A stretch of DNA of 55,449 nucleotides from the IMG/VR virus record IMGVR_UViG_3300028417_000005, positions 1 to 55,449 of that record. One strand, 5' to 3'. Origin of the DNA: a virus. Lineage: Duplodnaviria; Caudoviricetes. Within the stretch, counting starts at the first letter, position 1, and each line of letters opens with the position of its first letter. Positions 5,601 to 55,449 of this stretch are shown one piece after another. Both the position numbers and the translations under genes were made by a program. The notes under the pieces are model-generated. The model did not search any database, was not told the DNA's origin, and saw only the letters and a list, made by a program, of their open reading frames with translations.

Positions 5601-5618
5601 ACGAGGCTACGCCTCGTT
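5600..5618 (-). terminator. Perfect 8-bp hairpin AACGAGGC-GTA-GCCTCGTT followed by a U-rich run on -
   Basis: Inverted repeat overlapping the stop codon of the 5607-5831 ORF. Confidence 0.4.
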
Positions 5619-5831: not shown

Positions 5832-5968
5832 AGGAGACCTCCCAAAAGAAACAAGGCGAAACAACAGCCAAGCGCGAAGACCCAAGCCAAGCCGAAGCAA
5901 GGCGACAACGAACACCAAAGGAGCGAAGGAACCAACGGGAAGAAGGAACCAACACACCAAGCACAGTA

Positions 5969-5993
5969 GCGGAAAATGCGAAGCAATTTCCGC
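5969..5993 (-). promoter_or_regulatory. Candidate N4-type virion-RNAP hairpin promoter (template = + strand, leftward transcription)
   Basis: GCGGAAAATGC-GAA-GCAATTTCCGC contains a GC-GAA-GC triloop, with a C 11 nt 5' of the loop centre (5970) as in N4 early promoters. Confidence 0.5.
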
Positions 5994-6061
5994 AACGAGA
6001 AAAAACACAAGACAAGGGGAGGGGGAACCAAAAGACGGGGACAAAAAGACAGGCTAATACC

Positions 6062-6135
6062 TTCATACAAAATTATTATTATTATTTTCATACAAAATTA
6101 TTATTATTACCTTCATACAAAAACTTCATACAAAA
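6062..6135. repeat. Four direct repeats of TTCATACAAAA with (TTA)n spacers
   Basis: Copies at 6062, 6087, 6112 and 6125, at the point where gene polarity switches. Confidence 0.85.
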
Positions 6136-14887: not shown

Positions 14888-15018
14888 TGGATATTGGTGA
14901 AAAGCTAGAGGATATGGGTTTTGATGGTTCTAAGATATCATCATATGTAGTGTATGCCTTTTGTGGCATAGCATTATTAACCGCAATTGCTATAACAATA
15001 ATAGGAGCTAGACTATGA
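14887..15018 (+). CDS. 43-aa single-TM protein
   Basis: Hand translation MDIGEKLEDMGFDGSKISSYVVYAFCGIALLTAIAITIIGARL; overlaps both neighbours. Confidence 0.5.
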   Translation: MDIGEKLEDMGFDGSKISSYVVYAFCGIALLTAIAITIIGARL

Positions 15019-30800: not shown

Positions 30801-33800
30801 AAAGAATCGAAATTCAAGATACCGTAAAATATATTTATGATAAGAAAGGTGTATATAATAAAGCCTTTACTAATAATGTTGTACAAAGAGTACAAGCAAC
30901 AATAGATAAGTTCCCAATAGATAGCAAGTCTTTACAGAATTTAACCAAGAGGAATTTACTTGCTGTCCTCGTAGATAGTGATGGCAAGCTACTTGATGGT
31001 ATATTAGAGAATGCTATGATACAAGTTCCATTAACATTCAGAATGATGGATAATGTTAGTGATGACTTTGAAAACAAAAAAGATTTTGGTGAGAATGTAC
31101 AGCTACAAGTTTACTACAATACACTCGGTAGAAATATTATTGATGCATCTGGCATAAGGGTTAACTTTGAAGTTGATAGTGAATCACAAAGATCTATACT
31201 TGAATCATCTCTAGGCGAAGCTATAACATCTGCCTTAATTGAAGCTGGTGTGTTTGAAGTTAAAACATTGAGAGAAGATGGTAAGACTACATCATACCTA
31301 AGAGATACTATCAAAGATGATAGCTCCTCAATAAGGAAAAAAATTGAAACATTTTTTGGTGCAGAAGGAGATGTAAAAAGTTTAGAAAAACATAATAAAG
31401 TTAATATTTTGGAGATTGGTTCTAATCTCTTAAAGATGAGCTACAATGTCACAAATGTAGAACAGCTTATGCCTACACAAGAACCAACCGTTAATAAAAT
31501 TAAGACAAAAAACAACAGCAAGATATCTGAGAAGATGCAAGGCAATATCAATACTATGAATAATGTGCCAAACACATTTAAAGATATAGCTACTACTATT
31601 TTTAATATGCCAAAACACCAAGTACTTTCGCTTATGGGATATGTTGATTTAGAAAGGGTAGATTTAGATGGTATAGATAGCAAGACTGCTTTAAATGAAT
31701 CATTATCTAAAGCATATAATGATGCTATGAAGGTGTATAGTAGAAATAAAGAAGGTAAACCCTTCTACTTTTCATATTTTTTCTCACGAGTTGGTAGATT
31801 GTTTATAAATGAAAATGTTATGAACCCAATCAATGATAAACAATTAGCTAGGAACATAATTAACTTTGGTGGTAAAAAACAAATAGTAACAGATGAAAAT
31901 ATGAATACTTTTTTCAGAGCCATTGGTTCTCAACTTGGAATAAAGATAGAACATCTAAATGACGATAGAGTTTCTGACGAAATCTATAGAATTGTAAATG
32001 AAAATATGAATCTTAATGATTGGGAGTTAACTCAGAAATATAAAGGTAAAGATGGATTAGCTAAGTTTATAGCATATAAAGAGCTTGCTAGATATATATC
32101 TAGAAACAAAGAAGATGTATTTGAAACAGATGTGCAGATGTCTGTAGATGGTTCTGCAAATGGTTTATTCTTTACATTTATGAACTTCATTGGAGATGTT
32201 GAACTGTTTAAGAAATATGCTAATGCATTGGGTATATTCATCCCATCATCTGATAATAAAAATGCATTTGAATATTATGAAAACAATGGTCTTGATGTAT
32301 ATAATATATTTGGTTCTAAATTAGGTGAAACTAAATATGATATGCTTGAGAGTTTTAAATCATATGAAGATGGTGGCAACCTACTGTCATCCGTTCTAAA
32401 TAACACAATTGATACCATTCTTGGTAGCAAAACAACAGAACCACTAATTGGTATTAGAAAGATGTCTAAGCTACCTGTTATGATATTTAGCTATATGGCT
32501 GGCAAGAATGTTATTAAAAAAGATGTTGCAGATGCTATATATGATGATCTAGTAGATCTGATCAATTTTGGTAGCGAGAGAGAAAGCAAGACCGCTTTTA
32601 AAACATTGGTTGAGATAGCAAAGCCAAATCATAACATTTCAAAAAAAGAACTCCTAGATCAATATAATAAATTCGTACATTTTGGAATGAGTATAAAAAG
32701 CCCACAAGAAGGAGAGATCTTCTATATAGCTAAGAATGTAAACACTAAAGATGTGATAATTAGTAGATTATCTAATACATATGGTCAAATGATGTTCTTG
32801 ATGCTAGAAAAGGAGTTGTCACCACTAAAGACTAAGTTGACTATTGTATCAGATGCTCTATCTATAGCTGGTAATTCACTTGCTGATTTTAAGAACCAAC
32901 ATATGATAAAAAAGAACTTTATCAAAAATAGACCAGAAGGAACCAAACCAGAAGATATAGTATATTTCTTTGATAATATAGATACTTTTTTCAACACACC
33001 TGATGGTTCTCTATTGCCATTGTCATCATCTGATTTTATAGTTAGTAGAAATGATAATGGAACATTTAAAGGGTTGACTAATAATGATATAGCTATTGGT
33101 GCTAGGTCTTCACATATAACTTATGCTGGTTCTGCTGTTAGGATAAATCAATCATCAGATGCATCTACAATGGGCAGCATACACGATAAAGCAGTTGATG
33201 GTATGTTGCCTATGTTTGATGGTATATACACTAATATTAATGATGCTAAGACATTGCAAGATGAATACAATAAATCTGCAAAGTATGAAAATTATAATCA
33301 TATAGGAACCACAATTGAATCACTTGAGAGATCACTAGAAACATATAAATCAATATCACAATACATAACTAATTATCTAAAGAAGGCAGATGACGGTGAG
33401 ATTAAGATAACAAAATCTGCAAGAGAGAAGTTGGTTAATGAGCTTGATAGAATGAAAGTAGATTTTGAGATTGGCAAAAGCAAAACTAAAAATAGTCCAG
33501 AAGTATTAAGCATAGTATCTTTTATATCAGAGTTAAAAAGTATGCTTGATAATGTAAATAGGATGAAAGAAGAACTAGGCTTTTCAGAGGCATCTATACA
33601 ACAGATCTCTGGAGCTTATGATATGGGTGATACATCTCCTAACTTTGGCTACTCAGATATAGATGTCAATGTTAAAAATGAAGTTCCAATAGATGTTAAA
33701 TCTAAGAAGCCTGTTAGAAAAAATAAAACATTTAACGAAAAAGCCAATGAGGAGAAGGTCAATAAAGGTAATAATGCTAAGAATAAAAAGATAAAAGATA

Positions 33801-36800
33801 CATTGTCATCACTAAAAGGTCAATATGATAGTAAAGATAAAGATGGTTTTGTATTCTTAGAAGCTATAGCTAATGAGCTAGATGCTCTATTTGGCAAAGG
33901 CAAGATAAAGATAAACATAGGTAGAGATACTAGAGACTCAGATAATACATTTAATGAAAAAAATCTAACTATAAACTTATCTGGTAAAGATAACTCTTAC
34001 ATATCCGATAGTAAAAATAAGAATGCAATACACGAGATATTGCACGCTATGACATCTCTTGGTTTAAACACAGAGAGAGAAGCACTTACTAAGTACACTA
34101 ATCTACTTAGGAGAATACATAAGAAAGAGTTTTCATCTATATCCTTTGAAGATGCTATTGGCAACAACTCATTATCTAAACAAGATCTAGCATTAATATA
34201 CATAGCAACTAGAAAGAACAATATAATCGCACAAAAAGAGCTTGTTGCAATCTTTGGTTCTGATTCTGACTTTAGATCATACTTAAGCAAAGCGGTTGAT
34301 TCATCTGTTGAAATGAATATAGCATTAAAAGCATTCAAAGCTATTATATCTATAATAAATCAAACTATAGATAAACTGATTAAGAAATCAGAATACTTCA
34401 GGAGAGTATCTGATAGCGAAGGGTTAACTACTACTGGTAAAAAAGCTAGAAGTGATAAAGCTAAGAAGATGTATAAAGATATTTTCCACGAGATAGATAA
34501 AGCTAAAGATATTAGTAAAGAATATATTGATGCTATGAACACTAAAGATAAGAATGATGAAGATCTTAATAGTCCATCTTATTCGATCAAAGATAGCGAT
34601 ATATACAATAGTTTAACAATACTCAACAAAGGTACAGTAGCTACTGATGCTGTTGCTTCTAAGTACCTTAGAAGGTTATATAACAGCAATCTAACTAAAG
34701 CATCTATAGTAGCCATATCAGATGGATACAAAAAGCTATATGAAGAACACCCAAGTGTTAGGCACATAGCTAAGTTTATGAGAGATAATATCATTGAATC
34801 TGATTTCATAAAGAGAGTATTAGTTGATAATAACTTAGATGGAAGTGTTGATAGAAATACAATAGATAAGTTATTGACTCTTGACCAGAAGAACCAAGAG
34901 AGAGCTAACAACGCATCTAAAGAAGAGCACGATGATACGATGAATACATTTGGAGATCTATCAAAAGAGGATCAACAGCTATTAACTAAATCTTTTTTGT
35001 CTAGTGATATCAAAGTATTGTTTGATGGTTCTGTATTGCAAGATGTTTTTTATGAGTTTATCAATATGGATAAAGATGAACAAGCAGATTACTTAGCTCA
35101 ACGAGTAGCGCACATAAGTAAAACTAGTGGCAAAATAGATAAGAAATTGCTTACTAAGATAATTAAAAACTCTGGTCAATTTGCTATAAACAAAAACGCA
35201 GATGTAAATGGGTATGTCTTCCACAATGCGATATCAATTGGTCGTCAATTTAAAATAGATGATCAAGATGTAGTAAGTGACATAGATATACTAATAAGCC
35301 TATCTGCATTGTACGAGTCTGGTGGTTCTGCTCTTCTTAAAAAGATCGATAAGAAGAAGCTTGAAAAGCTATCAGATAAACATAAAGCAATAGAAGCCTA
35401 TCAGTTTGATTACTTTGGTTCTGATAGATATAAAATTAGAAAAGGGTGGTTCGTAAATAATCATCATAGAAATTACCAAATAATCTTTATGGATAAAAAA
35501 GAGTACAGAAGAACCAAAAAAGATAGTGGATACAAAGTAATTGGGGAGAGAGATGGTCTACTACTTGTTAAAAGAGTTGATTTATCTGGAGCATATGTAT
35601 CAGGTGCATTATCATTAAATAGTGCCACTCCTACTGGATATCAAATACCAAATAGTGATAAGGTCAAGAGTGTTGAGAAGGGCATAAAGATGTTTGGTAA
35701 GAATGCTGTGCCTAGAAGAGGATATGTTGTCAGAGAGAAGGATGGTATGCCTGTAGAGACATATGAAATTACAGGTTGGAACTATGAAGTAAATAATGAA
35801 GATAAGAACCAACACTCTGAAATGGATAACAACATAGTAGATGTGATATCTAAAACATACAACTCTGTTATGGTTAAGTCATCTTCATCAATGTTAAATA
35901 ATGAGATAATGAAAAAATATTCATTGAACTTTATAAGCGATTCACAAATACAAGAGGGTGATGATGTTGAAGTAGAGCAATATACTAAAGAAAGTAAAGA
36001 GCAACTAAAAAAAGAGCTTGATGAAAAGAATCCATTAATATTTACATTAGAGGGGTTTGATGATGACTTCGGAGTTGGTGATAATGTAGAAGGATATGTT
36101 AGAGTTGATCCAAAGGAGTTCTCAATAAGCAAGAACTTATCTTTTGCTGGCATAAATGATACATCTGTTTTATATGTAAAAAAAGGAACCAACGATATCC
36201 TACTAGGGTATAAAGAGAACTTTATATTTGACAATAGAAATGTTAGATATTATGAGACATTATATAAAGGTATAGTATCTCAAATGAAACAAAATGTTAC
36301 AATTAAGAGCCCAGCTGTACAAAAAGTTAATCTTCTTAGTAATATGTTTATACTTAGTGTAATTGGTGTCCCAGTATATGATATTATCAAATACGGAAAA
36401 GAATTTAATGATAATAAAACTAAGTATGATAAACTTAGTATGAAAATAGATTCATTAGAAAGAAGAAATAAAGCAAAGAAAGATAAAAAAGTACAAGATA
36501 GAATAGATAAGCTTAGAATAAAACTAGAAGAGAATCCACTACATAAGACCTCAAATGCAGGCTTATTTCAGACAATAGATAGTCAGTTAAGAAGAGACAA
36601 TATGATATCTAATGATGCCTTTCTATCAGAAGTATCAAATATCGTAGACAAAATGGGTCTTAATAAACATAATGAATATGTTAAGAAAATTAAGAAACCA
36701 TTAGAAGTCCTTAATAAAAAAGTCAAAATAAAAGATAGTGATACTAGTATAAATGACTTGTCTAAGAATCTTATAGAAAACATAGTGTCAATGGACCCAA

Positions 36801-37243
36801 CAATAGGAAATCTATTATCTGAGCTATATATGTCAAGAAGATCTGCTACTGGCAATACGGTTGGAGTTGGCGTGTCAATGATTGATCAAGCATCTAGGCA
36901 TATGCTACTTAGCTATTTGCTTTCAATAGGACAATCACAACAAGAGGCATCACAGATGGCACTTGATGTATTTGTTGACTACAGAAGGAACCTACCAAGA
37001 GAGCTTAATGTATTTTCATCATATGCTTGGTTCCCATTTATAACTTGGTATATGAGGATACAAAGAGTATTGATATATCTACTAATTAACAAACCAGTAT
37101 CATCTATAATTGGTCAGGTGTTAGTATCTGGTGATGTAGATACATTTAGATCTAATATAGTTGAAGCTGGATTTGATGGGCTTAAAGGTGGTCTTGGAGC
37201 TGAAGAGCTAGGTACATCTCTTGTACCAGCCTTCTATAGATAG
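27890..37243 (+). CDS. Virion-encapsidated RNA polymerase (N4 gp50-like), 3117 aa
   Basis: SRVGRL, motif A SVDGSANG, motif B RKMSKLPVMIFSY, motif C PMFDGIY; apparently Cys-free like N4 vRNAP; HEILH in the C-terminal part. Confidence 0.88.
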   Translation: MYSEKGLYTDEELSYIETPQTKSLNKLSSIGKNKASKLGFAGLDIEDSIKFISSIEDGDSIKSVDGKNYKLNNKDAYETYRPPSEDKEFDDAQKRRVDKQRFRLAKSLGVKPEDISAGDVYQRGAYDKLQTYASLTNADFEPDIRDLEYYRNNALPKLTQDEPIPVYGKFQDTTDVENYGRGLFETDLLSNNNIGSFDNNVEENAFADQEIARRGADGQDGYFGDLVDRSQASFHSLFDNAVEGIADGTASAVGATTNLAKSVFKNFDKDYHSLDVGSDEWNKSRDEFSKNKKDTFNDIKSFGDKASKFVTGTDNLLSKDYKKLHGVSKKSIDDMERDSKLAEKAMDDGRYDQAFLHGIEYALPYLADSSADIASFVNPYTFALGVTARVNRKANEFSKNNDGKKWNAGQTAKALGIEYALAKAELGLIKKVAKGTGLGQGLSKLADDTLSGGNKAISKTQSMKKRAGNVLLGGAGEFLQEYADASTTDLITQKEGSKTLSDTLLNKNNLFQALVGSGTGASMSLAGNTAGAGLDKYNDSYENKILKKQSTAHSNNEMVRLKRSEEEKIDSILNEGQDETGYFTGLDRYDDMSGSVFSEIKFRLKGIKEDVDKAVANGKTSKDIQDEIDKQLKDKNASYPINKKNYDKLVLKEIKRREDASKKDISDSNIDDSINDDVNSAFKEEPISADVVVDNTDKIIDLEGKILSATNTFDNMKKDKNVDINIINEQERIVNKYKDDLSKLQSPSANNVSGSRLTIYKDDFRDLLNNSDISLSDKAIIATPMNSRATNILAFGEDKLSKSIKNLVDIPINESGSNTFILLPKKDNVSAGGNSEHSVAIQKTIASIKAKENQSVDAYTIPSDAIRTYSKGSRDIDYSRVIDALEANGYTEAMIDGDIGSGVFTKGGSAIDGVNTKTIGDKTLSRINSARSKDIKTNKTNNANNIFVVERDSNKATITKDNIKAEANLDKRIEIQDTVKYIYDKKGVYNKAFTNNVVQRVQATIDKFPIDSKSLQNLTKRNLLAVLVDSDGKLLDGILENAMIQVPLTFRMMDNVSDDFENKKDFGENVQLQVYYNTLGRNIIDASGIRVNFEVDSESQRSILESSLGEAITSALIEAGVFEVKTLREDGKTTSYLRDTIKDDSSSIRKKIETFFGAEGDVKSLEKHNKVNILEIGSNLLKMSYNVTNVEQLMPTQEPTVNKIKTKNNSKISEKMQGNINTMNNVPNTFKDIATTIFNMPKHQVLSLMGYVDLERVDLDGIDSKTALNESLSKAYNDAMKVYSRNKEGKPFYFSYFFSRVGRLFINENVMNPINDKQLARNIINFGGKKQIVTDENMNTFFRAIGSQLGIKIEHLNDDRVSDEIYRIVNENMNLNDWELTQKYKGKDGLAKFIAYKELARYISRNKEDVFETDVQMSVDGSANGLFFTFMNFIGDVELFKKYANALGIFIPSSDNKNAFEYYENNGLDVYNIFGSKLGETKYDMLESFKSYEDGGNLLSSVLNNTIDTILGSKTTEPLIGIRKMSKLPVMIFSYMAGKNVIKKDVADAIYDDLVDLINFGSERESKTAFKTLVEIAKPNHNISKKELLDQYNKFVHFGMSIKSPQEGEIFYIAKNVNTKDVIISRLSNTYGQMMFLMLEKELSPLKTKLTIVSDALSIAGNSLADFKNQHMIKKNFIKNRPEGTKPEDIVYFFDNIDTFFNTPDGSLLPLSSSDFIVSRNDNGTFKGLTNNDIAIGARSSHITYAGSAVRINQSSDASTMGSIHDKAVDGMLPMFDGIYTNINDAKTLQDEYNKSAKYENYNHIGTTIESLERSLETYKSISQYITNYLKKADDGEIKITKSAREKLVNELDRMKVDFEIGKSKTKNSPEVLSIVSFISELKSMLDNVNRMKEELGFSEASIQQISGAYDMGDTSPNFGYSDIDVNVKNEVPIDVKSKKPVRKNKTFNEKANEEKVNKGNNAKNKKIKDTLSSLKGQYDSKDKDGFVFLEAIANELDALFGKGKIKINIGRDTRDSDNTFNEKNLTINLSGKDNSYISDSKNKNAIHEILHAMTSLGLNTEREALTKYTNLLRRIHKKEFSSISFEDAIGNNSLSKQDLALIYIATRKNNIIAQKELVAIFGSDSDFRSYLSKAVDSSVEMNIALKAFKAIISIINQTIDKLIKKSEYFRRVSDSEGLTTTGKKARSDKAKKMYKDIFHEIDKAKDISKEYIDAMNTKDKNDEDLNSPSYSIKDSDIYNSLTILNKGTVATDAVASKYLRRLYNSNLTKASIVAISDGYKKLYEEHPSVRHIAKFMRDNIIESDFIKRVLVDNNLDGSVDRNTIDKLLTLDQKNQERANNASKEEHDDTMNTFGDLSKEDQQLLTKSFLSSDIKVLFDGSVLQDVFYEFINMDKDEQADYLAQRVAHISKTSGKIDKKLLTKIIKNSGQFAINKNADVNGYVFHNAISIGRQFKIDDQDVVSDIDILISLSALYESGGSALLKKIDKKKLEKLSDKHKAIEAYQFDYFGSDRYKIRKGWFVNNHHRNYQIIFMDKKEYRRTKKDSGYKVIGERDGLLLVKRVDLSGAYVSGALSLNSATPTGYQIPNSDKVKSVEKGIKMFGKNAVPRRGYVVREKDGMPVETYEITGWNYEVNNEDKNQHSEMDNNIVDVISKTYNSVMVKSSSSMLNNEIMKKYSLNFISDSQIQEGDDVEVEQYTKESKEQLKKELDEKNPLIFTLEGFDDDFGVGDNVEGYVRVDPKEFSISKNLSFAGINDTSVLYVKKGTNDILLGYKENFIFDNRNVRYYETLYKGIVSQMKQNVTIKSPAVQKVNLLSNMFILSVIGVPVYDIIKYGKEFNDNKTKYDKLSMKIDSLERRNKAKKDKKVQDRIDKLRIKLEENPLHKTSNAGLFQTIDSQLRRDNMISNDAFLSEVSNIVDKMGLNKHNEYVKKIKKPLEVLNKKVKIKDSDTSINDLSKNLIENIVSMDPTIGNLLSELYMSRRSATGNTVGVGVSMIDQASRHMLLSYLLSIGQSQQEASQMALDVFVDYRRNLPRELNVFSSYAWFPFITWYMRIQRVLIYLLINKPVSSIIGQVLVSGDVDTFRSNIVEAGFDGLKGGLGAEELGTSLVPAFYR

Positions 37244-44701: not shown

Positions 44702-46360
44702 TTAAAATGGTATATCATCATAATCAATATCTATGTCTATCGTCTCTTGTTTATATTCTATCTTATCAGATATTATATAAGGCGACATAGATCTAAGCCA
44801 AGAATCTTCTTGAGCTACATAATACAATGAATATAACTTTTTATTGTTAATAACACACTTCTTGGCAAGTGTCTTAAATGTTTTTATTATCCTACTCTCG
44901 TAGATAGGAAAATCATTTATGAATTCAATCCAAGCATCTACTATTTTAGTAATTTGACTCTTATTATATCTCACTTGGTTCTGTCTTTTGTTTATTTCAA
45001 ATACAACCTCCATAACAATATATAAATCTTTTGATGTTTCAAAATGATACTTCAGATCGTCCACAGATAGCTCTGGTATCATTTTGATGTTCTTCTCAAC
45101 CTCAGCTATTGCCTTAGAGACTTTGTCTCTTGTGATCTCGTGTAGACCACTTTCACTAGTTATCTTCTTAACTATACTAAGAGCTACTCTCTCCTTCTCT
45201 TTGGATAGCTTCTCCTTGTAGTCTTTTGAATATCTCTTAACTGGCATATATGGTTCATTATGATAACCGTGTGTCTCAAGAATCTTTGATACATCTAGTA
45301 CTTCAAAGTACTTTTTGCCTTTATGTGGTCTAGCACCACGACCTATAATCTGCATTATTAAAGACCTTACAGGTGATGGTCTTATTGGAACCACAAGCTC
45401 TATGTCTGACACATCAAAGCCTATTGATAGTTTATTCATACTAACTAAGCAATTACAAGATATTTCATCATCTGACAACAGAGATGTTTTAATACTGCTT
45501 CCATCTTTAAATAGCTTAAGCATCTCTTTACTTTTTTTACTATCTGATTTAGAGTGGTAGCTATATGCTTTATATCCATCCATAACTAATGCCTCAGCCA
45601 TCGCATCGCAATGCTCAATACTACTGCAGAACACAATTGTTTTTTTGCATTTGGCATTTAGTTCATTCATAGATGATATAGTTAGTGATATAATATTGTC
45701 TGTATTATATATTGATGATATGTCAACAGATGAATAGTCATTGTTATTTAATACTTTTAATTGTGTCAAATCTATATCATTAACAAAACTAGGAACATAA
45801 TATCTAGCCTTAACTAAAGCTCCTATCTCTTCTAAATATTTAATCTCTGAAGCTATAATGTAATCATCTACATCTGGGAATAGATATCCTTCTGAATCAT
45901 ATGGCGTAGCTGTAAACCTAATAATTGGCTTAGAACCAACAACACTCATTATAGAAGATATGGTACTGGTGTTGTAAAACTTATGACCTTCATCAATTAT
46001 AATGTAATCAACATCTCTCAATATACCTACAATATCTTTCTTATCTAGTCTTGCAAATATAGTTTGTATCATACCTATGGTGGTTCTTGCATCTATGTTA
46101 AATAGATCATCCATACCAGATTTAACTACAGATACATCAACTCCTAATGATATTGCTCTATCATATAGCTGTTCTATTAGATCAGATATACCAACCATAA
46201 CAATATGCTTTGATGTTTGTAATGTATTAACTAGTTTCATTATCATAAATGATTTACCACTAGATGTTGGTGATGATATCATTATGTTTTTATTGCCACT
46301 ATCTAATGAATAGTCTATTGATGATACTGTTGTATCTTGAAATGAATATATATTATCCAT
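44702..46360 (-). CDS. Superfamily 2 (DExH) helicase
   Basis: SPTSSGKS, IIDEGH, TATP, GFD, QIIGRGAR; C-terminal DDIPF. Likely start at 46360 (MDNIY), overlapping the stop of the last mini-ORF. Confidence 0.88.
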   Translation of the reverse strand: MDNIYSFQDTTVSSIDYSLDSGNKNIMISSPTSSGKSFMIMKLVNTLQTSKHIVMVGISDLIEQLYDRAISLGVDVSVVKSGMDDLFNIDARTTIGMIQTIFARLDKKDIVGILRDVDYIIIDEGHKFYNTSTISSIMSVVGSKPIIRFTATPYDSEGYLFPDVDDYIIASEIKYLEEIGALVKARYYVPSFVNDIDLTQLKVLNNNDYSSVDISSIYNTDNIISLTISSMNELNAKCKKTIVFCSSIEHCDAMAEALVMDGYKAYSYHSKSDSKKSKEMLKLFKDGSSIKTSLLSDDEISCNCLVSMNKLSIGFDVSDIELVVPIRPSPVRSLIMQIIGRGARPHKGKKYFEVLDVSKILETHGYHNEPYMPVKRYSKDYKEKLSKEKERVALSIVKKITSESGLHEITRDKVSKAIAEVEKNIKMIPELSVDDLKYHFETSKDLYIVMEVVFEINKRQNQVRYNKSQITKIVDAWIEFINDFPIYESRIIKTFKTLAKKCVINNKKLYSLYYVAQEDSWLRSMSPYIISDKIEYKQETIDIDIDYDDIPF

Positions 46361-49338
46361 TATTTTTTCCCCAAAAAGATTTTTCTGATAAGCCTTCAAG
46401 CATTGCAAATACAGTACTAGTAGTTGATTTGTGCTCATATATATGATTTATAAATACATCTTGCGAGCTAACAAGACAAATCTTACCTACATATTTAAAC
46501 ATCATATTCCTTCCAATATTTTATTTTATATAGATTACCACCAACAAGAGATAATCTAGATATACTGCCTAGCATAAAATAATCATATGATAATTTATTA
46601 GCAAATAAATGTTTTAATTCTTTTCTTTTATCAGGTATAAATTTTTCAATACTTTTAAACATTATATTGGTTCCAAAAAGTTTTTTTTGATAAACACCCA
46701 TTTACTGGGCTAGTGTAAATAAATAGCTTGTAATCATATATATGATCTATTAGTGTACTATGCTTCCTAGAAACACAAATATAACTTACCATTTTAAACA
46801 TTATATTTGCTCCAAAAAGTTCTTAATGATAAGCCTTCAGTCATTATGAATCTAGCATTAACAGTTTGTTGATGATCATATATATGATTGATTAGTCCGC
46901 TATGTTCTCTAAAAATACATATACAACCTAATAGTCTAAACATTATATTTGTTCCAAAAAGATTTTAATGACGAGTTTCCACTTATTGTAAATCTAATAT
47001 TATTATGGAATACATGACTATACATATGATTTATAAATGTACTTCGTGTTTCAAGAAGATAAAGATTACCCATATATTTTAGCATTATATTCTCCCCAAA
47101 AAGTTTTTTCATATAAGTTATCATCAAGAATAATTATTCTAGATATAGTATGTAACTTAGAATATTTATGTGATAAATTATTATTAAATAAATGTTTTAA
47201 TTCTTTTCTTTTATCAGGTATAAGTTTTTCAATATTTTTAAGCATTATCTTGACTCCAGAAAATTTTTTCATATAAATTACTATCTATTAAACCTAATCT
47301 ACTAATTGATGTATTGTATTTTGATCGAGTAGGAAGATAAGACATATAGTTATGTCGTATTAGATTATTTCTAGGTGAATATGTTTCTATTTCTTTAATC
47401 ATAATATTAACTTTAAAAAGGATTTTCTGTATATGTAAACCCATCACTAAACCATTGGTTCCAAAATGTCTTTACATTTGTATTATTTAAAATCGTCAAC
47501 TTGTCAGTAGAGAAGATCTTAGGCATATTATTTTCAATTGCATATTTATGTGGTATCATAGATAAATTTTTATCTGAATTATATTTAGATACATTAAACA
47601 TATCTCTTCCAAAAAGATTGATATAATAAATATTCATTCAAATTTAATCTTCCAGTTGATTTATCATTATTTGTCATAGTACCAAGACCCAACATATAAA
47701 TATGTTGGGTTAAGCCGTCATTATCTGTCCTCCAAAAATATGTTTTTATATATTTAATCATAACATCTCCAAAAAATTTTTCTATATAATATATTATATC
47801 TAGAGTCATATTTATTGATACTTTTCATTTGATTTGAATTAACTTTTTTAAACATTATATTTATTCCATTTATCCATGCTTTGTTGTATTGATTTGCTAT
47901 TGCTCCAAAAACTATAATATGATAATTTATTTAACATATTAAATCTAAATACAACATAGCCATCAGAATTAAATCCTTTATATTTATGCTTTATAAACAA
48001 AGTAGAACCATTATGTGATATCTTATCTATATTTTTAATCATTACATTTACCTCATATATTGGTTCCAGAAAGCTTTTTTATTTGTATCATTTATAATTG
48101 TTAGTTTATTACCACTATGTTTATGAGATATCATATAAAAGCTTGTTGCTGCCGTATATTTAAATACATTAAACATATTCATTCCAAAACATTGCTCTAT
48201 AAAAATTGTCTTCAACATTAATTTTAAGATTTATAGAAACATATTCCCTAGATGCTTTAAATATACTTTTAAACATTATATTTATTCCTATATATTTTAG
48301 CATTATCTGCCCCAGAAAGTTTTTATATATGAACATTTATTCGATAAGGCTAACCTATTATATGATTTATCACAATTTATAATAGTTGTATAAATCATAT
48401 AAGTATGTTGTATTAAATTACTATTTCTTGTATCTTGAATTGAGTATCTATTTATATTTTTAATCATATTCACTCCAAAAAGATCTTTTATGTAATTTAT
48501 TATACATATATTCACATCTGTAAAAAACTAAAAAAATATTTTCTCCATAAATAGTTTTCATTCGATATCGAAAAGTATCTGAGCTAACTTTTTTAAACAT
48601 CTCTATTCCAAAAAATTTTTCTGTGTAGTATATGTAATGATCTATCTTTAATATTACACTTCATTTTCTTTAATGATTTTTTATATCTATAATAAGAGAA
48701 CCCAACTCGCTTCTTAATCGCTTTATGCATAACTCCTCCAATATATTTTTAAATATATCTATATTGGTTCCAAAATAATTTTTTAGGTCCATAGGCATTA
48801 AAAAACCTATAGTCATATGTTACATTTGCATATTTAAATCCATTATTATAATAATCATACAACTTGTTATAACCTTTATAAACGATAAACATATTTATTC
48901 CAATATAATTTATCTATTAAAATAATCCTATTAAAGTTATTTGTAAAATCCAATCTAGAGCCATTATAGGTATATGAATATTTAAATGTTAATTTATTAG
49001 ATATTTTATTATTAATAAGTCTTTTATACATAACTATTCCAGCGATTCCAACTAAGATGATATCTATTAGATAAATAATATGAAATATTTAATCTACTAT
49101 CATTATAAGTATATGAATATTTAAATGTTAATTTATTAGATATTTTATTATTAATAAGTCTTTTGAACATATTTACTCCAACGATCCCAACGAAGATGAC
49201 CTCTATTGAATAAATGATATGAAATATTTAATCTATAAACACCATATTTATAATTATTAATTTTTTTATACATATCTATCCAAATCTATTATTTCTACGA
49301 TAAAGGCTAGAAGAGTATAATTTTATATTTTTAAGCAT
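46353..49338 (-). repeat. Array 1: about 21 tandem paralogous mini-ORFs (20-64 aa)
   Basis: Hand-translated units (start-end on -): 49338-49276, 49273-49151, 49170-49024, 49031-48876, 48892-48749, 48730-48593, 48600-48460, 48467-48303, 48303-48169, 48176-48048, 48042-47848, 47855-47754, 47761-47594, 47601-47413, 47402-47238, 47245-47066, 47085-46936, 46943-46794, 46801-46655, 46662-46495, 46502-46353. Example: MFRLLGCICIFREHSGLINHIYDHQQTVNARFIMTEGLSLRTFWSKYNV*. Confidence 0.85.
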
Positions 49339-49343
49339 AGCAT

Positions 49344-50291
49344 TTATTTAATGCTAGCTAATAATAATTTATGATATATGTTAACATACCCTCTAGCTAT
49401 CGATAGAGACATTTTACTATCCCAGATAGTAGAGTTCATAGGACTATTTAAATTGCCGTATGATAGCTCTGAGATACCTATAATAGAGTTTTTAATATGA
49501 GAACCAGTACAAACACTACTTCCACTACTAGATACATTTGGATGCATTACATTTGATAGCAACGGCAACACATTGCCATCTTTTTTTGAGAACCACCCGT
49601 ATGTAGGTATGATTATACTACTATCTATCATACTTAGTTCAATTGACCAATTGTTTATTGTAGTTAGGCTACTACCATCTTGCATCTTGCAATTAAACAA
49701 CATCTCTTCAGCAATAGTAATTAGTTTGACATTATCGTCAACTTTGATATGGTATTCATCAATGTGATCTACAATTTCTCTCATCTCTTCTGGAGCCATT
49801 AGATACAACTCTGGGTCCTTGCTTTCATCAACTGATAATGATATATTTTTGACTTCCAAGGTCATAATAGCTTCTTCAGCTGTCTTTGTATGTTTCTTTA
49901 TTGGCTTAGTTGTGCTCAGATAAACAGCAACCTTTATGTTTGTTAGAGTTTTGAATTTGTTCAGTTTAGAAATGACATCATAAGATAATAAATTGTGAGG
50001 CTTATTATCATTGTCTATGAATATTAATCCATAGAATAGATCATTTTCCATACTTAATCTTAGTAGCTCTATCATACCATCGAAGTTTTTAGCCTTAAAC
50101 ATAGATATGTTAAAGTTAGGCATTTCACCTTTTGCATTTAATGACATATCTTTATTATCTATTGTTGTTTCATATATTCCGTAATCATACGAAATATTAT
50201 TTGACTTCACTATACCCTTGTTTTCAACGACATAGTTTTTAAATTCAGATATTTCGTCTGACAACATTTTATTTAACACTAGACTCATCAT
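49344..50291 (-). CDS. Prokaryotic E2 (UBC-like) protein
   Basis: MHPNVSSSGSSVCTG followed by LSYGNLNSP matches the E2 HPN...C active-site pattern; AAAGGAG RBS. Confidence 0.65.
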   Translation of the reverse strand: MMSLVLNKMLSDEISEFKNYVVENKGIVKSNNISYDYGIYETTIDNKDMSLNAKGEMPNFNISMFKAKNFDGMIELLRLSMENDLFYGLIFIDNDNKPHNLLSYDVISKLNKFKTLTNIKVAVYLSTTKPIKKHTKTAEEAIMTLEVKNISLSVDESKDPELYLMAPEEMREIVDHIDEYHIKVDDNVKLITIAEEMLFNCKMQDGSSLTTINNWSIELSMIDSSIIIPTYGWFSKKDGNVLPLLSNVMHPNVSSSGSSVCTGSHIKNSIIGISELSYGNLNSPMNSTIWDSKMSLSIARGYVNIYHKLLLASIK

Positions 50292-50328
50292 GTCTCCTTT
50301 TAATTTTGGTCTAGCATAGGGACGAACC

Positions 50329-50880
50329 CTATACTAGCTTTTCTTTGTTGGCATAAGCAACACTTAGTAGCTTGTAGTCTGTAGCTACAAGTTTAACCTT
50401 CTCTATCTCTAGATTAAAGATGTCATTCCCTACATTTATGTCTTTTAAAGCGTGTAGTTTCTTGCTGATAGCTTTTACACTATTGCTTACAATCTCTAAC
50501 TTATCTTCTACAGTTAGGAAGTCTGTATCAACTGTTGTATCCATTTCTGGTTCTATAGTTGAATACATCTCTCTGATGCTTCTAATAGCATCTACTGCCT
50601 CTTGTAGCTTGTCTCCATCAGATACTGTTTGATCTGTTAAAATCTCAGTTAAACTTCTGTTAGAAGCTTTTTCTTGATCTTCTGCTCCAGAACCGCCACC
50701 TGATGATTTAATCTCTTCTTTACTTGAGATCACTACATTCACAGTTTGTGTGAATAAGTCGTTTGTTGATTTTACTTCAACACCGTTCTTAGTAGGCGTA
50801 ACCTCAACCTCTGGTATAATACTATCTAATGTAGCATTGTCGATTCTGTTCTGAGCCTCAATGGCTTGTGCAATGTTCAT
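50329..50880 (-). CDS. Putative ubiquitin-like precursor (N-terminal Ubl-like region ending in Gly-Gly, plus helical C-terminal domain)
   Basis: ...KNGVEV...VNVVISS...KSSGGGSG resembles the ThiS/MoaD C-terminal half; lies between E1 and E2. Confidence 0.45.
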   Translation of the reverse strand: MNIAQAIEAQNRIDNATLDSIIPEVEVTPTKNGVEVKSTNDLFTQTVNVVISSKEEIKSSGGGSGAEDQEKASNRSLTEILTDQTVSDGDKLQEAVDAIRSIREMYSTIEPEMDTTVDTDFLTVEDKLEIVSNSVKAISKKLHALKDINVGNDIFNLEIEKVKLVATDYKLLSVAYANKEKLV

Positions 50881-50981
50881 ACTATCCCTTTTAAAAAAAA
50901 TGTAAGCACTATGGCTTCATAAATAAAACTATTAAAGTTCTCTTTATGAAAGCATAGTGCAATTGAAATACTAGGAAAGAC

Positions 50982-52073
50982 CTAATATTTCTTTAGCCAC
51001 TTGGCGACATCTGCCTTTTTGATCTTAAGAAGTTCTCTATTTTGCATTCTCTCGAATCCAATTATTGGATCTTCAATCCCCTCTATATTTACCTCTCCTT
51101 CATACTTTACTATATCAGCTACCTTTCGTCTGCCATCCTCAGATAGCAATGTTCTATATAGATTGCAGTATGTAAATATCCTTATCTCATCATAATCTGA
51201 TGATCTCATACTAGAACCCTTGCGTTCTTCCCAATGCTCCCATTCGGTCTTTAGCTTGTACATAGCATCAGAATAAGCACTATCTGTGCTGTCTAGCACT
51301 AAGTTAAACACTTTATGGAAGTCTCTTTTCCATTTATCTATCTCATTATACACTTTCCTAGCTTCGCTTTCACTATTAGGATCTAGGAAATCCATTAGCC
51401 ATTGACTAGCCATATGCGTAGCTGGAAGCATAAAGTTTAGATCTATCTTGCCATATGATTCATTGACTATTGATGTTTCTGCGACAGGTTTCTCACATAG
51501 CTTAATGATGAGCTCATCATCTTTGTGAGTTATCGTTATAAAAGGTATTGCACCACTATGCAAAACCTTTCTTGTTCTTATATCCATAGCTCCTATTGGC
51601 AGAGCCATAGTCTGCTTGTTGTGACATCCTTCTAAGAACAATGGTTCAATAAAGTCTGTTTCTAGCTTATGGTTGGTTCCCCATTGTCTAAGGGAATCTT
51701 GCTTTAGTGTTGATTTGAGATCACCAACCGATATTGGAATTCTTGGCATATTGCTAAGCTCCCACTTATCGTGTTCGAAGAAGTTGATATTATCTTTATC
51801 TTCTCCAAATGTATAATTTCTTAACATATAGAGCAAATTAGAACCAACACCACCAACACCAACTATCTCTGGAATTGTTGATGTATCTCCATTTTCTGTT
51901 TTATTGCTAATATGCAATTGTTTCATTTTTGGCTCTAAGAACTTAGCATATTTTTTATTGTATGCTGGATTTAAAATAGTATCAGAAGATCTATTTATAA
52001 CCATATCTAAACATTCGTTCGGATTTGTATATTTTTCTTCTAGCTTTATTTTTAGAAAATCTTTTATATCCAT
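50982..52073 (-). CDS. ThiF/MoeB/E1-like adenylating enzyme
   Basis: IVGVGGVGSNL, FEHDKWELSNMPR, LKQD and MDIRTRK match the E1 nucleotide-binding motifs. Confidence 0.75.
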   Translation of the reverse strand: MDIKDFLKIKLEEKYTNPNECLDMVINRSSDTILNPAYNKKYAKFLEPKMKQLHISNKTENGDTSTIPEIVGVGGVGSNLLYMLRNYTFGEDKDNINFFEHDKWELSNMPRIPISVGDLKSTLKQDSLRQWGTNHKLETDFIEPLFLEGCHNKQTMALPIGAMDIRTRKVLHSGAIPFITITHKDDELIIKLCEKPVAETSIVNESYGKIDLNFMLPATHMASQWLMDFLDPNSESEARKVYNEIDKWKRDFHKVFNLVLDSTDSAYSDAMYKLKTEWEHWEERKGSSMRSSDYDEIRIFTYCNLYRTLLSEDGRRKVADIVKYEGEVNIEGIEDPIIGFERMQNRELLKIKKADVAKWLKKY

Positions 52074-52602
52074 AGTGTGTTTCCTTGTTTTTTGTTTTTA
52101 TGTCATCTTGTGTGACATTTATGATTGGCTTAAATGCACTTAGCTTAACAGGGGTAGCTATATCATATGTATACTTACCAGATACAACCTTTCTCCTTTT
52201 CGCATTATAGAATTCTCCATTGAACCCAAATAACATATTCGAACCAATGCCATCTCCATAATCTGGTTTCAGCAATCCATCTTCATCTGTATGTGAGAAC
52301 CCCATAACACCAATTGGATGTGTATGAAGATTATCACATAAACTCATAGATAAAACATTAAAGCCCATAGACTTTAGTTCATCTATCTTTTGTGATATAA
52401 GATTTCTATCAAGACCTTCTATCACAGACTTGACCATAGTAGTCATTACAGAACCAGATGCAGACTTCTGATTGTGCATATAATACAATATAGGTATTAT
52501 ATGCTTGCATTCTGTTTCAACTGAAACATACTCAATTCTAAGCTCACGATCTTGTATGAAAAGATCTATTATATCTTTTGGCGGTATCACTATTTTATAC
52601 AC
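51991..52602 (-). CDS. JAB/MPN+ metallopeptidase (deubiquitinase-like)
   Basis: N-terminal Glu candidates and LHTHPIGVMGFSHTD, the HxH-x7-S-x2-D JAMM motif. Confidence 0.75.
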   Translation of the reverse strand: MYKIVIPPKDIIDLFIQDRELRIEYVSVETECKHIIPILYYMHNQKSASGSVMTTMVKSVIEGLDRNLISQKIDELKSMGFNVLSMSLCDNLHTHPIGVMGFSHTDEDGLLKPDYGDGIGSNMLFGFNGEFYNAKRRKVVSGKYTYDIATPVKLSAFKPIINVTQDDIKTKNKETHYGYKRFSKNKARRKIYKSERMFRYGYK

Positions 52603-53903
52603 ATTCGTATCCTTTTTTTTAGTTTAATATATTTGTCTTTTTGCACCTCAGTATATTTACTCCAGAACAATATATCATTAAGATTATTATCAATACTTAA
52701 TCTAATATCATCATTTGAATCATAATAAATATGAAATATATATAAACCACCACTATAATCATATTTAGAGTCATGTGTTTCTAAGTCATATCTAAACATA
52801 TTCTCTCCAAAATTGTATATTAGTAATACGCCAGCTCATTGCTAACCTATAGCAAATAAATTTATCACAATAAATATGATTTAAACAATTATAATCATAT
52901 TTATATCCATGTGTTTCTAATTCATAATTAAACATATTCATTCCAGAACCATATTTTATCGAGTGGATTTTTTATATTAAGTATATATTCAGTAGATGAA
53001 GTATTATATATATGACATAAATAGTGACACAAGTTAGTGCTGTTGGATCTCTGTCCATGTAAGTCATATCTAAACATATCTACTCCAAAACAATAGATCA
53101 TCAAGGTCATTATCTATGCTTAACCTAATGTCATTAATTGGATTAAAATAAATATGAGATACATAAAGACTTACAAACGAAAAGATATCCATTTTAAACA
53201 TATGCACTCCAGAAATTTTCAAAGCATAAAAAATTTAAACGCTCATTACATTTGAAATTATATTTATAATAAAGTTCATTACTTCTAGCTAAATATATAT
53301 ATGATTTAAACATATTCGTTCCAAAAATCAAATTTATCTAAATATTTGCTAAGAGTAAATCTATTTTTTCTTGGGAAAAAAATAGTATGTTTATGTTTAA
53401 TGTTAGTGATACTGTCCAACCTACCATATATACTAATTTTAAACATATGTCCTCCAAAATAATACCTTATCTAGCTTTCTGCCCATATTAAATTTAGATT
53501 CAATATCTAAACTACAATAAATATGATTTATGTAACCAGATTCTCTAATATTATTATATTTTTGTGCATATACATCATTTTTAAACATATTTATTCCAGA
53601 ATTGTATATTATCAAGTAAATTACTTATCCCAAATCTATATTCAGAAGTTGAAATATAATAAATATGATGTATAGAATTATTATTGGATTCATGTTTATT
53701 TAAACTATTTTTAAACATATTCACTCCAAAATATACAAGAATCTATTCCTGTTGTACTTATATTATTAAAATTTACACGCAATTTTCTGTCAATATTTAT
53801 ATTTAAATAAATATGATCTACCAAGTCATCAATATGAATTGATGTATATGAATTTAAATATTTTTTAAACATATTTACTCCAGAATAATATGTTATCAAA
53901 TAA
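52590..53903 (-). repeat. Array 2: nine tandem paralogous mini-ORFs (39-69 aa) plus a 5' remnant
   Basis: Units: 53872-53711, 53718-53581, 53588-53439, 53446-53306, 53313-53194, 53201-53070, 53077-52928, 52935-52792, 52799-52590. Junction consensus TTYTGGARnRnATATGTTTAR. Example: MFKNSLNKHESNNNSIHHIYYISTSEYRFGISNLLDNIQFWNKYV*. Confidence 0.9.
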
Positions 53904-55449
53904 TTAGTTCACCATATGTAATGATTTTCTAATCTCTTCATTTCTTAATGTATTTTCTTTTAATACATCAATTCTTTTACCTGATATCATAGATAAAACA
54001 TCTGATAGTAAATTGCTATCATTTATTTTACAAGCTACATCTTTTACATTAGATATTAACTTGTCACAATTATTTGGATGAACTCCATAATCATCGTGAT
54101 TTGTTGATAAATCAAACTGACTCATCATACAGACCTCTGAGAGCCAATAAGCCTCTACTGAGTGTATTACGCTTGATGCTAGTCCAGTTGATCGTCTAGT
54201 GGCTCCTACGACCTCTCTATAGTGCGTTAGGGAACCAAACGCTTCTGTGTCTATAGTAACTTCTTCTGTTATCTTACTTGGTCTTATACACTTCACTCCG
54301 TTCGGCAGCGCCCAAGTGTGATATCTCTTTTTGTCAGAGTATAATGATCTTATATCATTCATACCCTCTCCTACAGATTTGGATAAGTTCAGTACTGTAT
54401 CAAATGCGTATTCAGCTATCTCATCTGAATAGTCATTTTTTAATTCATCCATTAATATATTTTGTATTAGCTTAATGCCAGCACAATATGATATTGGTGA
54501 GAAGATAGATTTAACTACATCTCTTGTGAATGTATCAATATTAAACTTACTATTGATATTGTCACTAATAATCTGTTGTATATTTTCTATCTTATTCCCA
54601 CTAGCTAAATTAACTAGTTTTGCTGTTTCTTTACAACTATATAGTAGTGCATATATTTGAAATGCACTAGCACTATGATCTAAGTGCATAATCACACCTG
54701 TAGGCTTACCATCCATATGATCTCTTAGAGCCAATAGATAGTACTCCATAAATAATGGATCCTTAGCTTTGGATATCCATCTCTTGTGGTTCTTAATCAA
54801 CGAATGTTTGTTTCTTGAGAACCACATTGATCTCTGTTGGAAGGTCTTCTTATCTAAGCCATATACTCCAGCTATAGCTACTCCTAGCCAATGTAGTCCT
54901 CTCTCTGTTAACATCTGCTCATTAGCAAACTTGATTAGGACTTTATCTGATGTTGAACCTTGTGGGTTTAATTGGTATGCTGTTCTATACATCCTACCAT
55001 TTCTATCCCTCTTAATTTGAAAGTAAAACTTGTTTCCTTGTTTTAGCATTTCATCTGCACATCTCAATGTGCTCTTTAGCTTACAGTACCCAGTTGATTT
55101 ATCTGTTGGATATGATACTTTATCTAGCATCCTATCCTCTAGCTGATAAGCTACCTTCTGCAACTTATTTACAGATGCATAGTATTCAAGATCTATGCCT
55201 TCATTTAGTCTTTGGTTCCCACTTATGTGAGATTGGTTCATATAAGATTTGAACCCACCAAAGTTAGTGTGTTTCCATTCAGTAGCTTCTACAGCTTCTG
55301 GATATGGATGCTCTATACCTTCTATAGATAATATAGCATCTTCATCTAATTGCTTAGATAGGCTATTGTATATCATAAAGTACTGTTTCGTGTTGTTCTT
55401 TGGTACTAAAATATTAGTTTTAAGTACATCATTACCAGCCATATAGTCA
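53904..55449 (-). CDS. T7/N4-RNAPII-type single-subunit RNA polymerase, C-terminal part
   Basis: DRNGRMY, LNPQG, motif A LDHSASAFQ, motif B RDVVK.......Y, IHSVEA, motif C NHDDY. Confidence 0.88.
   Translation of the reverse strand, partial: DYMAGNDVLKTNILVPKNNTKQYFMIYNSLSKQLDEDAILSIEGIEHPYPEAVEATEWKHTNFGGFKSYMNQSHISGNQRLNEGIDLEYYASVNKLQKVAYQLEDRMLDKVSYPTDKSTGYCKLKSTLRCADEMLKQGNKFYFQIKRDRNGRMYRTAYQLNPQGSTSDKVLIKFANEQMLTERGLHWLGVAIAGVYGLDKKTFQQRSMWFSRNKHSLIKNHKRWISKAKDPLFMEYYLLALRDHMDGKPTGVIMHLDHSASAFQIYALLYSCKETAKLVNLASGNKIENIQQIISDNINSKFNIDTFTRDVVKSIFSPISYCAGIKLIQNILMDELKNDYSDEIAEYAFDTVLNLSKSVGEGMNDIRSLYSDKKRYHTWALPNGVKCIRPSKITEEVTIDTEAFGSLTHYREVVGATRRSTGLASSVIHSVEAYWLSEVCMMSQFDLSTNHDDYGVHPNNCDKLISNVKDVACKINDSNLLSDVLSMISGKRIDVLKENTLRNEEIRKSLHMVN

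Follow-up and report, generated by a model that had tools for sequence, protein, structure and literature searches.

Lytic phages gather many small genes towards the early end of their genomes, as in the early region of N4, the plastic regions of T4, and the host-takeover module of SPO1, and these genes are thought to act on the host. Among overlapping gene pairs, -8 is the third enriched spacing in the part of PMC12548453 cited here, and the same part describes MIRUs as short repeats that are mobile, insert at start codons, and have a spacing of -4. The cited sections of PMC9391042 describe recombination-driven change in tandem copy number in T4, where tifA undergoes segmental amplification under defence pressure. 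Prokaryotic gene neighbourhoods with E1-like and JAB genes, and PRTRC cassettes, are treated in the cited portion of Iyer, Burroughs and Aravind 2006 (PMC1779556). Herein, we analysed the IMG/VR virus record IMGVR_UViG_3300028417_000005, taken whole and called the window below (55,449 bp; 67% complete according to CheckV), and we describe two tandem arrays of mini-genes in which a recurring junction of about 21 nt links one unit to the next. The reading that we favour, with moderate confidence, is that the arrays form one translationally coupled, accordion-like family of early mini-proteins that evolves fast, with a conserved scaffold and free loops. Literature searches that covered tandem arrays of small phage genes, duplications in Schitoviridae, and E1/JAB proteins in phages yielded no description of such an array.

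Two arrays of mini-genes and their junction

Both arrays and the neighbouring gene block lie on the minus strand throughout. Array A (52590-53872) comprises nine units, A01-A09, of 39-69 amino acids (aa). The 21-mer TTTTGGAGTGAATATGTTTAA had 11 matches at up to three mismatches, compared with 0.02 expected from shuffles. Nine of these fell within 52792-53885, and the two outlying ones, at 48169 and 48460 and about 5 kb off, led to array B (49273-46353), which has 20 units, B01-B20, and is twice the size of array A. The family totals 29 units of 33-69 aa (102-210 nt of DNA), has a truncated leader remnant before each array, and occupies about 4.2 kb of the phage genome. The initial annotation had recognised array A but had missed array B, and with it all but a third of the family, and had overlooked the partner block. 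A profile of all 29 units detected no further copies in the window.

The units share the scheme M-[F/I/L]-K ... [I/L]-x-H-x-Y ... [R/K]-[L/F] ... L-x4-F-W-x-x-Y; most of them are basic (pI 8-10.7), and they are rich in N, Y, K, and I. Extensions beyond FWxxY were found at the C-termini of A09, B01, B03, B04, B10, B13, and B15. Eight consecutive units had been reported to end in W-x-x-Y-V-stop; eight indeed end in FWxxYV-stop, but array A has a ninth unit, A09, in which the stop is lost. The internal HIY and R-L/F noted at the same time are present as well, and can be refined to [I/L]-x-H-[I/K]-Y and to [R/K]-[L/F] (25/29 and 22/29).

At the junction, one frame encodes F-W-x-x-Y-V-stop and the +1 frame encodes M-F-K, with a GGAG or GGAA typically 5-6 nt ahead of the ATG. 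The hand-over in array A places the next ATG inside the upstream ...TAT GTT TAA, and the 8 nt ATGTTTAA are common to the upstream and the downstream open reading frame (ORF). The Trp codon and the A/G-rich codon after it form GGAG, GGAA, or GGGG at 5-9 nt before the ATG, a Shine-Dalgarno (SD)-like site that resembles, by sequence, the AGGA/AGGAG ahead of other genes in the window phage. An overlap of exactly 8 nt was found at 22 of the 31 hand-overs, including those from the RNA polymerase remnant to A01 and from B20 to the helicase gene. The other hand-overs either overlap by 1, 13, 17, or 20 nt, the junction stop being lost, or leave gaps of 2-18 nt, each with its own purine-rich site. All four jobs that had been ascribed to the junction, namely the C-terminal motif, the SD-like GGAG/GGAA, the next ATG, and the 8-nt overlap, can thus be read in the sequence.

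The chain of array A begins at the stop of an RNA polymerase (RNAP) gene of the N4 RNAPII/T7-like type (53904-55442, minus strand; PF00940, E 1.5e-18; phrog_2051, phrog_414, and phrog_2166), the 5' end of which is cut off by the end of the contig. This RNAP-like ORF ends in ...SLHMVN-TAA, and the 12 codons LFDNILFWSKYV-TAA follow directly in the same frame. They constitute the orphan C-terminal remnant A00 (53865-53903), just where it had been noted, and provide the SD-like site and the ATG of A01 (53 aa, 53711-53872). Next come A02 (45 aa, 53581-53718), A03 (49 aa, 53439-53588), and A04 (46 aa, 53306-53446), all three of which are missing in the X2 variant described below, and then A05 (39 aa, 53194-53313), A06 (43 aa, 53070-53201), A07 (49 aa, 52928-53077), and A08 (47 aa, 52792-52935). 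The last unit, A09 (69 aa, 52590-52799), is without the junction stop and carries a 22-codon tail that overlaps the GTG of the next gene by 13 nt.

Array B is preceded by a truncated unit of 20 codons, MLKNIKLYSSSLYRRNNRFG-stop (B00, 49276-49338), and opens with B01 (40 aa, 49151-49273), B02 (48 aa, 49024-49170), B03 (51 aa, 48876-49031), and B04 (47 aa, 48749-48892; lost in X2). B05 (45 aa, 48593-48730) has its own GGAGG site and no overlap. It is followed by B06 (46 aa, 48460-48600), B07 (54 aa, 48303-48467), B08 (44 aa, 48169-48303), B09 (42 aa, 48048-48176), and B10 (64 aa, 47848-48042), which has two FW/W-x-x-Y tails. The remaining units are B11 (33 aa, 47754-47855), B12 (55 aa, 47594-47761), B13 (62 aa, 47413-47601), B14 (54 aa, 47238-47402), B15 (59 aa, 47066-47245), B16 (49 aa, 46936-47085), B17 (49 aa, 46794-46943), B18 (48 aa, 46655-46801), B19 (55 aa, 46495-46662), and B20 (49 aa, 46353-46502), whose junction ATGGATAA begins the helicase. 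The ATG within this final junction, TTTTGGGGAAAAAATAATGGATAA, is likely the true start of the DEAD/ResIII helicase gene (44702-46360, minus strand), which would begin with MDNIYSF at 46360. The start of the longest helicase ORF, at 46438, overlaps B20 by 86 nt, and the junction ATG at 46360 is the likelier start.

Given this anatomy, we infer that the units are translated, coupled, and functional as proteins. The arrays would sit in an early or middle, replication-side transcription unit and the units would be read as a chain; that no minus-strand terminator lies within the arrays counts for such a chain. A ribosome that ends one unit at TAA or TAG would sit on the next ATG or 5 nt past it, and the GGAG/GGAA made by the Trp codon and the following codon, 5-9 nt upstream of this ATG, would aid the next start. 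Each unit would then hand ribosomes on by -8 termination-reinitiation coupling. On one side, the chain is predicted to start with the RNAP gene and to pass via array A to the JAB/E1 block; on the other, it would lead from array B to the helicase gene.

Each successive unit is in the +1 frame relative to the one before it, and the junction contains a TTTAAA run, as would be expected if programmed frameshifting fused the units into a polyprotein. We regard this as scarcely credible, since each unit has its own ATG and SD-like site, GTT-TAA does not allow the re-pairing of a +1 shift (as reasoned from codon-anticodon pairing), and the register of the TTTAAA would not permit the upstream frame to slip by -1. 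A word of about 21 nt that recurs at least 29 times in a phage encoding its own RNA polymerase could also be a DNA- or RNA-level repeat, such as a phage promoter, a replication iteron, or a structured RNA, with incidental ORFs. The DNA is conserved only from about -13 to +8 around the ATG, and conservation is nil outside the positions that codons explain. Junction RNA was found to be unstructured (30 windows, mean z -0.21), Rfam, tRNA, and terminator scans of the strand of the arrays gave no match, sigma-70-like sites in the arrays were not in excess (88 vs 87.8 expected), and the junctions are irregularly spaced, at 102-210 nt. Together with the open frames described next, these results make a repeat of this type very improbable.

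Open frames, conserved anchors, and whole-unit variation

The DNA is 75% A+T. The 1434 codons of all units contain not a single in-frame stop, compared with 95 and 287 stops in the two alternative frames, counted over 1405 codons each. ORFs cover array A completely (100%) and array B to 98.9%. When the interiors were shuffled unit by unit, the frame remained open in 0.1-4.7% of the trials (P 0.001-0.047), and the joint P over the 29 units was about 1e-55 (sum of log10 P, -55.4), which bears out the claim that all frames stay open despite a very high AT content and which argues against incidental ORFs. In addition, the G+C content of third codon positions in the units (GC3, 0.14-0.15) was below that of first and second positions (GC1 and GC2, 0.25-0.29), as expected if the choice of amino acids withstands the mutational bias.

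Conserved residues were found both within the units and at their ends. The internal anchors are [I/L] (22/27), H (19/27), Y (24/27), [R/K] (25/29), [L/F] (22/29), and L (19/29), and the C-terminal ones are F (25/29), W (all 29 units), and Y (23/28). The Phe before the Trp is encoded by TTT or TTC, and TTC is used at 4 of the 9 junctions of array A, though C is rare at third positions. Many junctions of array B read FW-x-x-Y-N-V-stop and derive their ATG from AAT-G; the Tyr is unneeded for the ATG there, yet it is retained. The starts of B02, B08, B10, B14, and B16, which do not overlap an upstream stop, still read M-[F/I/L]-K. Of the two residues that the overlap links, the last one of the upstream unit changes radically (V/D/A), and the second one of the downstream unit stays hydrophobic (F/I/L). 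Collectively, the use of TTT and TTC, the kept Tyr, the kept M-[F/I/L]-K, and the varying last residue indicate that the protein ends, and not the signals alone, are selected. We thus read M-hydrophobic-K and F-W-x-x-Y as the conserved protein ends and the final Val as a by-product.

The units are strongly diverged, with a median pairwise protein identity of 25% and DNA identities of 60-80%, and they are old. Core identity decays along the array from 0.23 between neighbours to about 0.15. Younger duplications are represented by B02/B03, by B17/B18, and by a two-unit block, B15-B16, that is duplicated as B19-B20 (300 nt at 73%).

Natural variation was assessed in run X2, an independent metagenome from another study, which contains 63% of the sampled words and whose contigs are about 98-99% identical to the window in the flanking genes (23 differences in 2867 nt and 28 in 1740 nt). 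X2 joints were trusted when at least 30 letters lay on the shorter side (n = 5), and all five trusted joints were in unit register and kept the ORF chain. In a 7.3-kb X2 contig, position 53304 is joined to 53710; the 405 nt skipped are exactly A02-A04, and 13 junction letters are shared. B04 is gone from X2 as well, where B03 reads in frame as far as the stop of B04, and B19 and B20 form an in-frame chimera with a net change of -160 nt, equal to one unit. The joints B14→B11 (610 nt, four units) and B20→B16 (725 nt, five units) show the pattern that tandem block duplications leave. Logan assembles its contigs from 31-mers, and provided that this applies here, joints with only 0-13 shared letters should be read-supported. 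Four further joints, 44677→53577, 47354→48445, 47651→47766, and 52695→52890, fell short of this limit of 30 letters and were set aside as unreliable; that from 47651 to 47766 (depth 61.8) would break the frame.

From the trusted joints, units appear to be gained and lost in register, in keeping with the proposal that they are cassettes that can be added or lost without breaking the chain. Whole units would be deleted, duplicated, or fused when recombination is unequal, whether it takes place between junctions or between corresponding sites in paralogues. Since the same roughly 13-21 nt end every unit, such recombination would leave the chain intact, and the arrays would behave as a gene accordion. 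An X2 contig over B16-B17 (46695-47104) shows 28 differences from the window in 410 positions, where the flanking genes differ by about 1%, and this excess may reflect either locally faster divergence or replacement by another paralogue.

In-register joints are an ordinary product of homologous recombination, and they show modularity rather than selection; furthermore, each X2 joint is one Logan contig aligned at 80% likeness. Three other results likewise weigh against our preferred reading. First, the core dN/dS among paralogues scatters around 1 (0.38-2.9 in the 25 closest pairs). Second, the changes between strains, for which 40 of 102 single-base differences were used and five near an unreliable joint were dropped, comprised 20 non-synonymous and 4 synonymous ones in the units (omega-like value, 1.07), and 4 and 7 in two neighbouring genes (omega-like value, 0.15; Fisher p 0.015 vs the units). 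A value of 1.07 fits diversifying selection and, equally, weak constraint. Third, the shared mini-fold for which the initial annotation had suggested structure prediction did not emerge: AlphaFold2 (AF2), run on the 29-row unit alignment, gave a pLDDT of 49.7, no secondary structure, and no confident fold. Among the differences listed between the strains, with adjacent changes combined, none creates a stop, and on inspection the replaced residues fall between the anchors, one conservative I→M excepted.

Databases were searched for relatives of the family. The PHROGs scan of the 29 units yielded no significant match (best E 0.011), and the precomputed annotation placed no Pfam domain on any database match to them. 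A search of 5.8 billion clusters returned only the contig's own proteins and a 1806-bp fragment carrying B09. An exhaustive profile search of 1.84 billion protein representatives gave 24 matches, 21 of which were the contig's own units (15 verified by sequence and 6 by the cluster-search listing). The other three (P0011, P0022, and P0024) were spurious, being long repetitive ORFs of other organisms that repeat FWNQY-/SFWNQY- or HKY-like words, and a match of the junction pattern in viral contigs (L001) was a chance one inside a 197-aa ORF. Hence, as judged from these searches, the mini-proteins appear to be an orphan family, with no relative among the databases searched.

The main rival explanation draws on several of these results. 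It holds that the array is a relay-only, MIRU-like repeat, a home-grown minisatellite in which an open chain is the sole constraint and the peptides are functionless. An omega of about 1 among paralogues and between strains, the failure to predict a fold, the want of relatives, and the differing copy number between strains would all be consistent with it, and the cited part of PMC12548453 supplies a precedent in MIRUs, repeats with an ORF coupled to the flanking gene. However, the old, diverged units of 102-210 nt keep anchors far from the junction, such as Y, H, and [RK][LF], and GC1 and GC2 are kept well above GC3. About 4.2 kb is retained in a size-limited genome although in-register deletions occur, and the relay would be needed solely because the array exists. 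A distant relative described below also has its mini-gene arrays in the corresponding location, though no uniform junction joins them. We therefore consider a mere relay unlikely. In the accordion-like family that we prefer, the scaffold anchors (M-hydrophobic-K, [IL]xHxY, [RK][LF], L, and FWxxY) would be fixed and the sequence between them free. The earlier claim that selection acts on the proteins accordingly needs to be divided: the open frames, the anchors, the GC3 bias, and the kept FW-x-x-Y speak for it, but an omega of about 1 between the anchors does not.

The gene block between the arrays and a distant relative

Judging from its virion RNA polymerase, portal, and capsid, the window phage is N4-like and very divergent. 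Its proteins reached at most 26.5% identity to those of cultured phages in tblastn, and blastn of 52500-54400 against phages gave no match. The RNAP query found no relative in viral contigs, and its match to a metagenome contig (L002) was false, the contig encoding an ABC transporter with a common 8-residue word. The virion RNA polymerase homologue (3117 aa, 27890-37243, plus strand; phrog_2206) matches its profile only over the central 500 residues. A peak of G+C at 4001-6100 (0.41 vs 0.25-0.35 elsewhere) includes long ORFs that overlap on both strands at 5391-6091, and Rfam gave no match there.

The block at 49344-52602 (minus strand) separates the two arrays and encodes a JAB-motif protein, a ThiF/E1-like protein, and two proteins without a known family. 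The first is a 203-aa protein (51991-52602) in which a JAMM-like motif, HTHP-x6-S-x2-D, was read from the sequence as HTHPIGVMGFSHTD; the JAB/MPN+ zinc motif is H-x-H-x7-S-x2-D. H93, H95, S103, and D106 are invariant in all three of its homologues, the only ones found. Pfam, PADLOC, NCBIfam, and PDB gave no match to this protein and the Atlas no usable one, a search of the window genome with PF14464 found nothing, and its AF2 model, built from a 2-row alignment, was unusable (pLDDT 37.7). The motif by itself weakly suggests a putative JAMM/JAB zinc protein.

The 363-aa protein (50982-52073, minus strand) has a UBA5-like loop and aligns to UBA5 residues 29-81 over the stretch GxGGxGS...D.D.ve.sN..R, and G49, G51, G54, N85, and R88 do not vary among 8 homologues. 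Against this assignment, its PF00899 scores of 18.4 and 17.6 bits are below the cut-off of 28.1. The Atlas model of the protein (pLDDT 0.58) matched ThiF clusters at TM 0.44-0.50, and a PDB search with the alignment returned only UBA5 (E 0.11-0.23) and a chain related to pmbA (E 0.005). These findings give weak support to a ThiF/E1-like identity. Codon 24 of the ORF (52004) is probably the true start, and the shorter form is present in the Atlas and in the protein database. Seven homologues share 37-41% identity with it, and the genomic context was compared for one of them, the relative described next; the other six (P0030-P0035) come from contigs of 2.3-34 kb. A 34-kb metagenome contig carries homologues of both the JAB-motif and the E1-like protein. 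Other matches of the two alignments to genome contigs and viral contigs (L005-L009) were generic ThiF motifs or the same relative again. The block is completed by a 183-aa protein (g183, 50329-50880, minus strand) and a 315-aa protein (g315, 49344-50291, minus strand), neither of which was assigned to a family and both of which are conserved in the relative.

This relative, L004/G001 (hereafter G001), is a 104-kb viral record, 95% complete, with 34% identity to the window phage in the capsid and 35% in the portal. RNAP and the central core part of the virion RNA polymerase were not detected in it, an empty result that proves nothing. All four block genes are kept (E-values 6e-8 to 7e-54), with identities of 39% for the E1-like protein, 41% for the JAB-motif protein, 26% for g183, and 31% for g315. 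A C-terminal stretch of the 315-aa protein, ...HPN.S..GS..CTG...GISELSYGNL.SP.NS.IW..., is strongly conserved between the two phages.

Around this block, G001 carries 18 mini-genes of 44-73 aa (4112-5193, 7252-7446, 8970-9907, and 15081-16304 of L004, plus strand). They belong to one orphan family (A5; MIQ...Y...N..L..L, beginning MIQ[LVI]...), share a strand, lie on both sides of the block and all within about 6 kb of it, and contain no in-frame stop, compared with 139 and 180 in the other frames. The junctions are irregular, with gaps of 6-96 nt, overlaps of 1-26 nt, and an AAGGA site for each gene, which indicates that the uniform four-job junction is special to the window phage. No relation of this family to that of the window was detectable (hhalign probability 0.04; reciprocal genome searches empty). 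The array-block-array layout is older. L004 also has an SPFH/Band 7 gene (14039-15007), which separates the block from the array downstream of it.

Given this neighbourhood, the mini-proteins could serve the JAB-motif and ThiF/E1-like proteins as substrates or partners, within a phage-borne system that processes or activates a library of small proteins. Both arrays flank the block on the same strand, the block is conserved in G001 with its mini-genes close around it, and the extensions past FWxxY on several units could be trimmed by a peptidase; moreover, neighbourhoods of E1-like and JAB genes are a recognised signature of ubiquitin-like systems in the cited part of PMC1779556. However, G001 is distant, and inheritance may be enough to explain the common layout. 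A C-terminal Gly-Gly is absent from the units: they end in V, D, A, R, G, and other residues, the last one being set by the overlap, and the G001 family is without a conserved C-terminus. Neither a beta-grasp nor another fold was predicted, the AF2 model of the units, itself of pLDDT 49.7, showing no structural elements; this model and that of the JAB-motif protein were too poor for fold searches. ThiS-like proteins are longer than the units. No ubiquitin-like protein or E2 was recognised, and the NCBIfam PRTRC models gave no match. The JAB assignment comes from the motif by itself, and the E1 assignment is under the Pfam cut-off. We consider a role as substrates or partners improbable.

The distant relative keeps the array-block-array layout with its mini-protein family replaced or diverged beyond recognition, and on this ground the arrays and the block may be speculated to form one undescribed system, i.e. 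a library of mini-proteins, shuffled by recombination, that the block trims, activates, or attaches to host or phage targets. If so, the junction would let the library grow and shrink with its expression never interrupted. This, too, we hold to be doubtful. The repeated association of arrays with a JAB-motif/E1-like block in two distant phages offers a lead to a possible new phage protein-modification system.

Comparison with known systems

Under the reading that we prefer, a coupled and accordion-like family, the mini-proteins are probably host-directed and would represent a diversified set of small binders for host take-over or counter-defence. About 4.2 kb of a compact lytic genome is devoted to 29 orphan mini-proteins in which the anchors are conserved and the loops vary freely, as would be expected of a binder set in an arms race. 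A single 21-nt sequence serves as coding end, predicted ribosome site, start, stop, and recombination joint, and offers a clean natural example of such multiple use. This junction would make a gene family freely expandable within an operon, and the natural variants display the loss, fusion, and duplication of whole units. A self-coupling cassette junction of this kind could also serve as a design for expandable synthetic operons.

The small-gene clusters of N4, T4, and SPO1 consist mostly of unrelated genes with separate starts, whereas here one family is chained by a single junction. In -8 overlap coupling of the NTGNNTGA class, as described in the cited part of PMC12548453, the ORFs are likewise co-oriented, and the upstream one contains, besides an SD-like site, the start of the next at 8 nt from its end. 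What differs is that one junction is repeated 22 times here, is part of the ends of paralogues, and would also be a recombination site, the coupling being predicted from its sequence. MIRUs, in the same part of that report, resemble the units as tandem, copy-number-variable elements, each of which rebuilds a stop/start hand-over and keeps the downstream genes coupled. The units, however, measure 102-210 nt, are strongly diverged (60-80% DNA identity), occur in two arrays only, and have internal protein-like anchors.

The adjacent ThiF/E1-like and JAB-motif genes of the window match the E1-like and JAB neighbourhoods treated in the cited portion of PMC1779556, a likeness that concerns the block and not the arrays. 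The arrays of G001 are alike in that mini-genes of one family flank the same block, and unlike in the sequence of this family and in their irregular junctions. The amplification of T4 tifA, as far as the cited sections of PMC9391042 describe it, also involves a small accessory gene of a lytic phage that changes in tandem copy number. The tifA copies are recent and identical and have a known target, whereas the units of the window are old and diversified and would be held together in a coupling chain.

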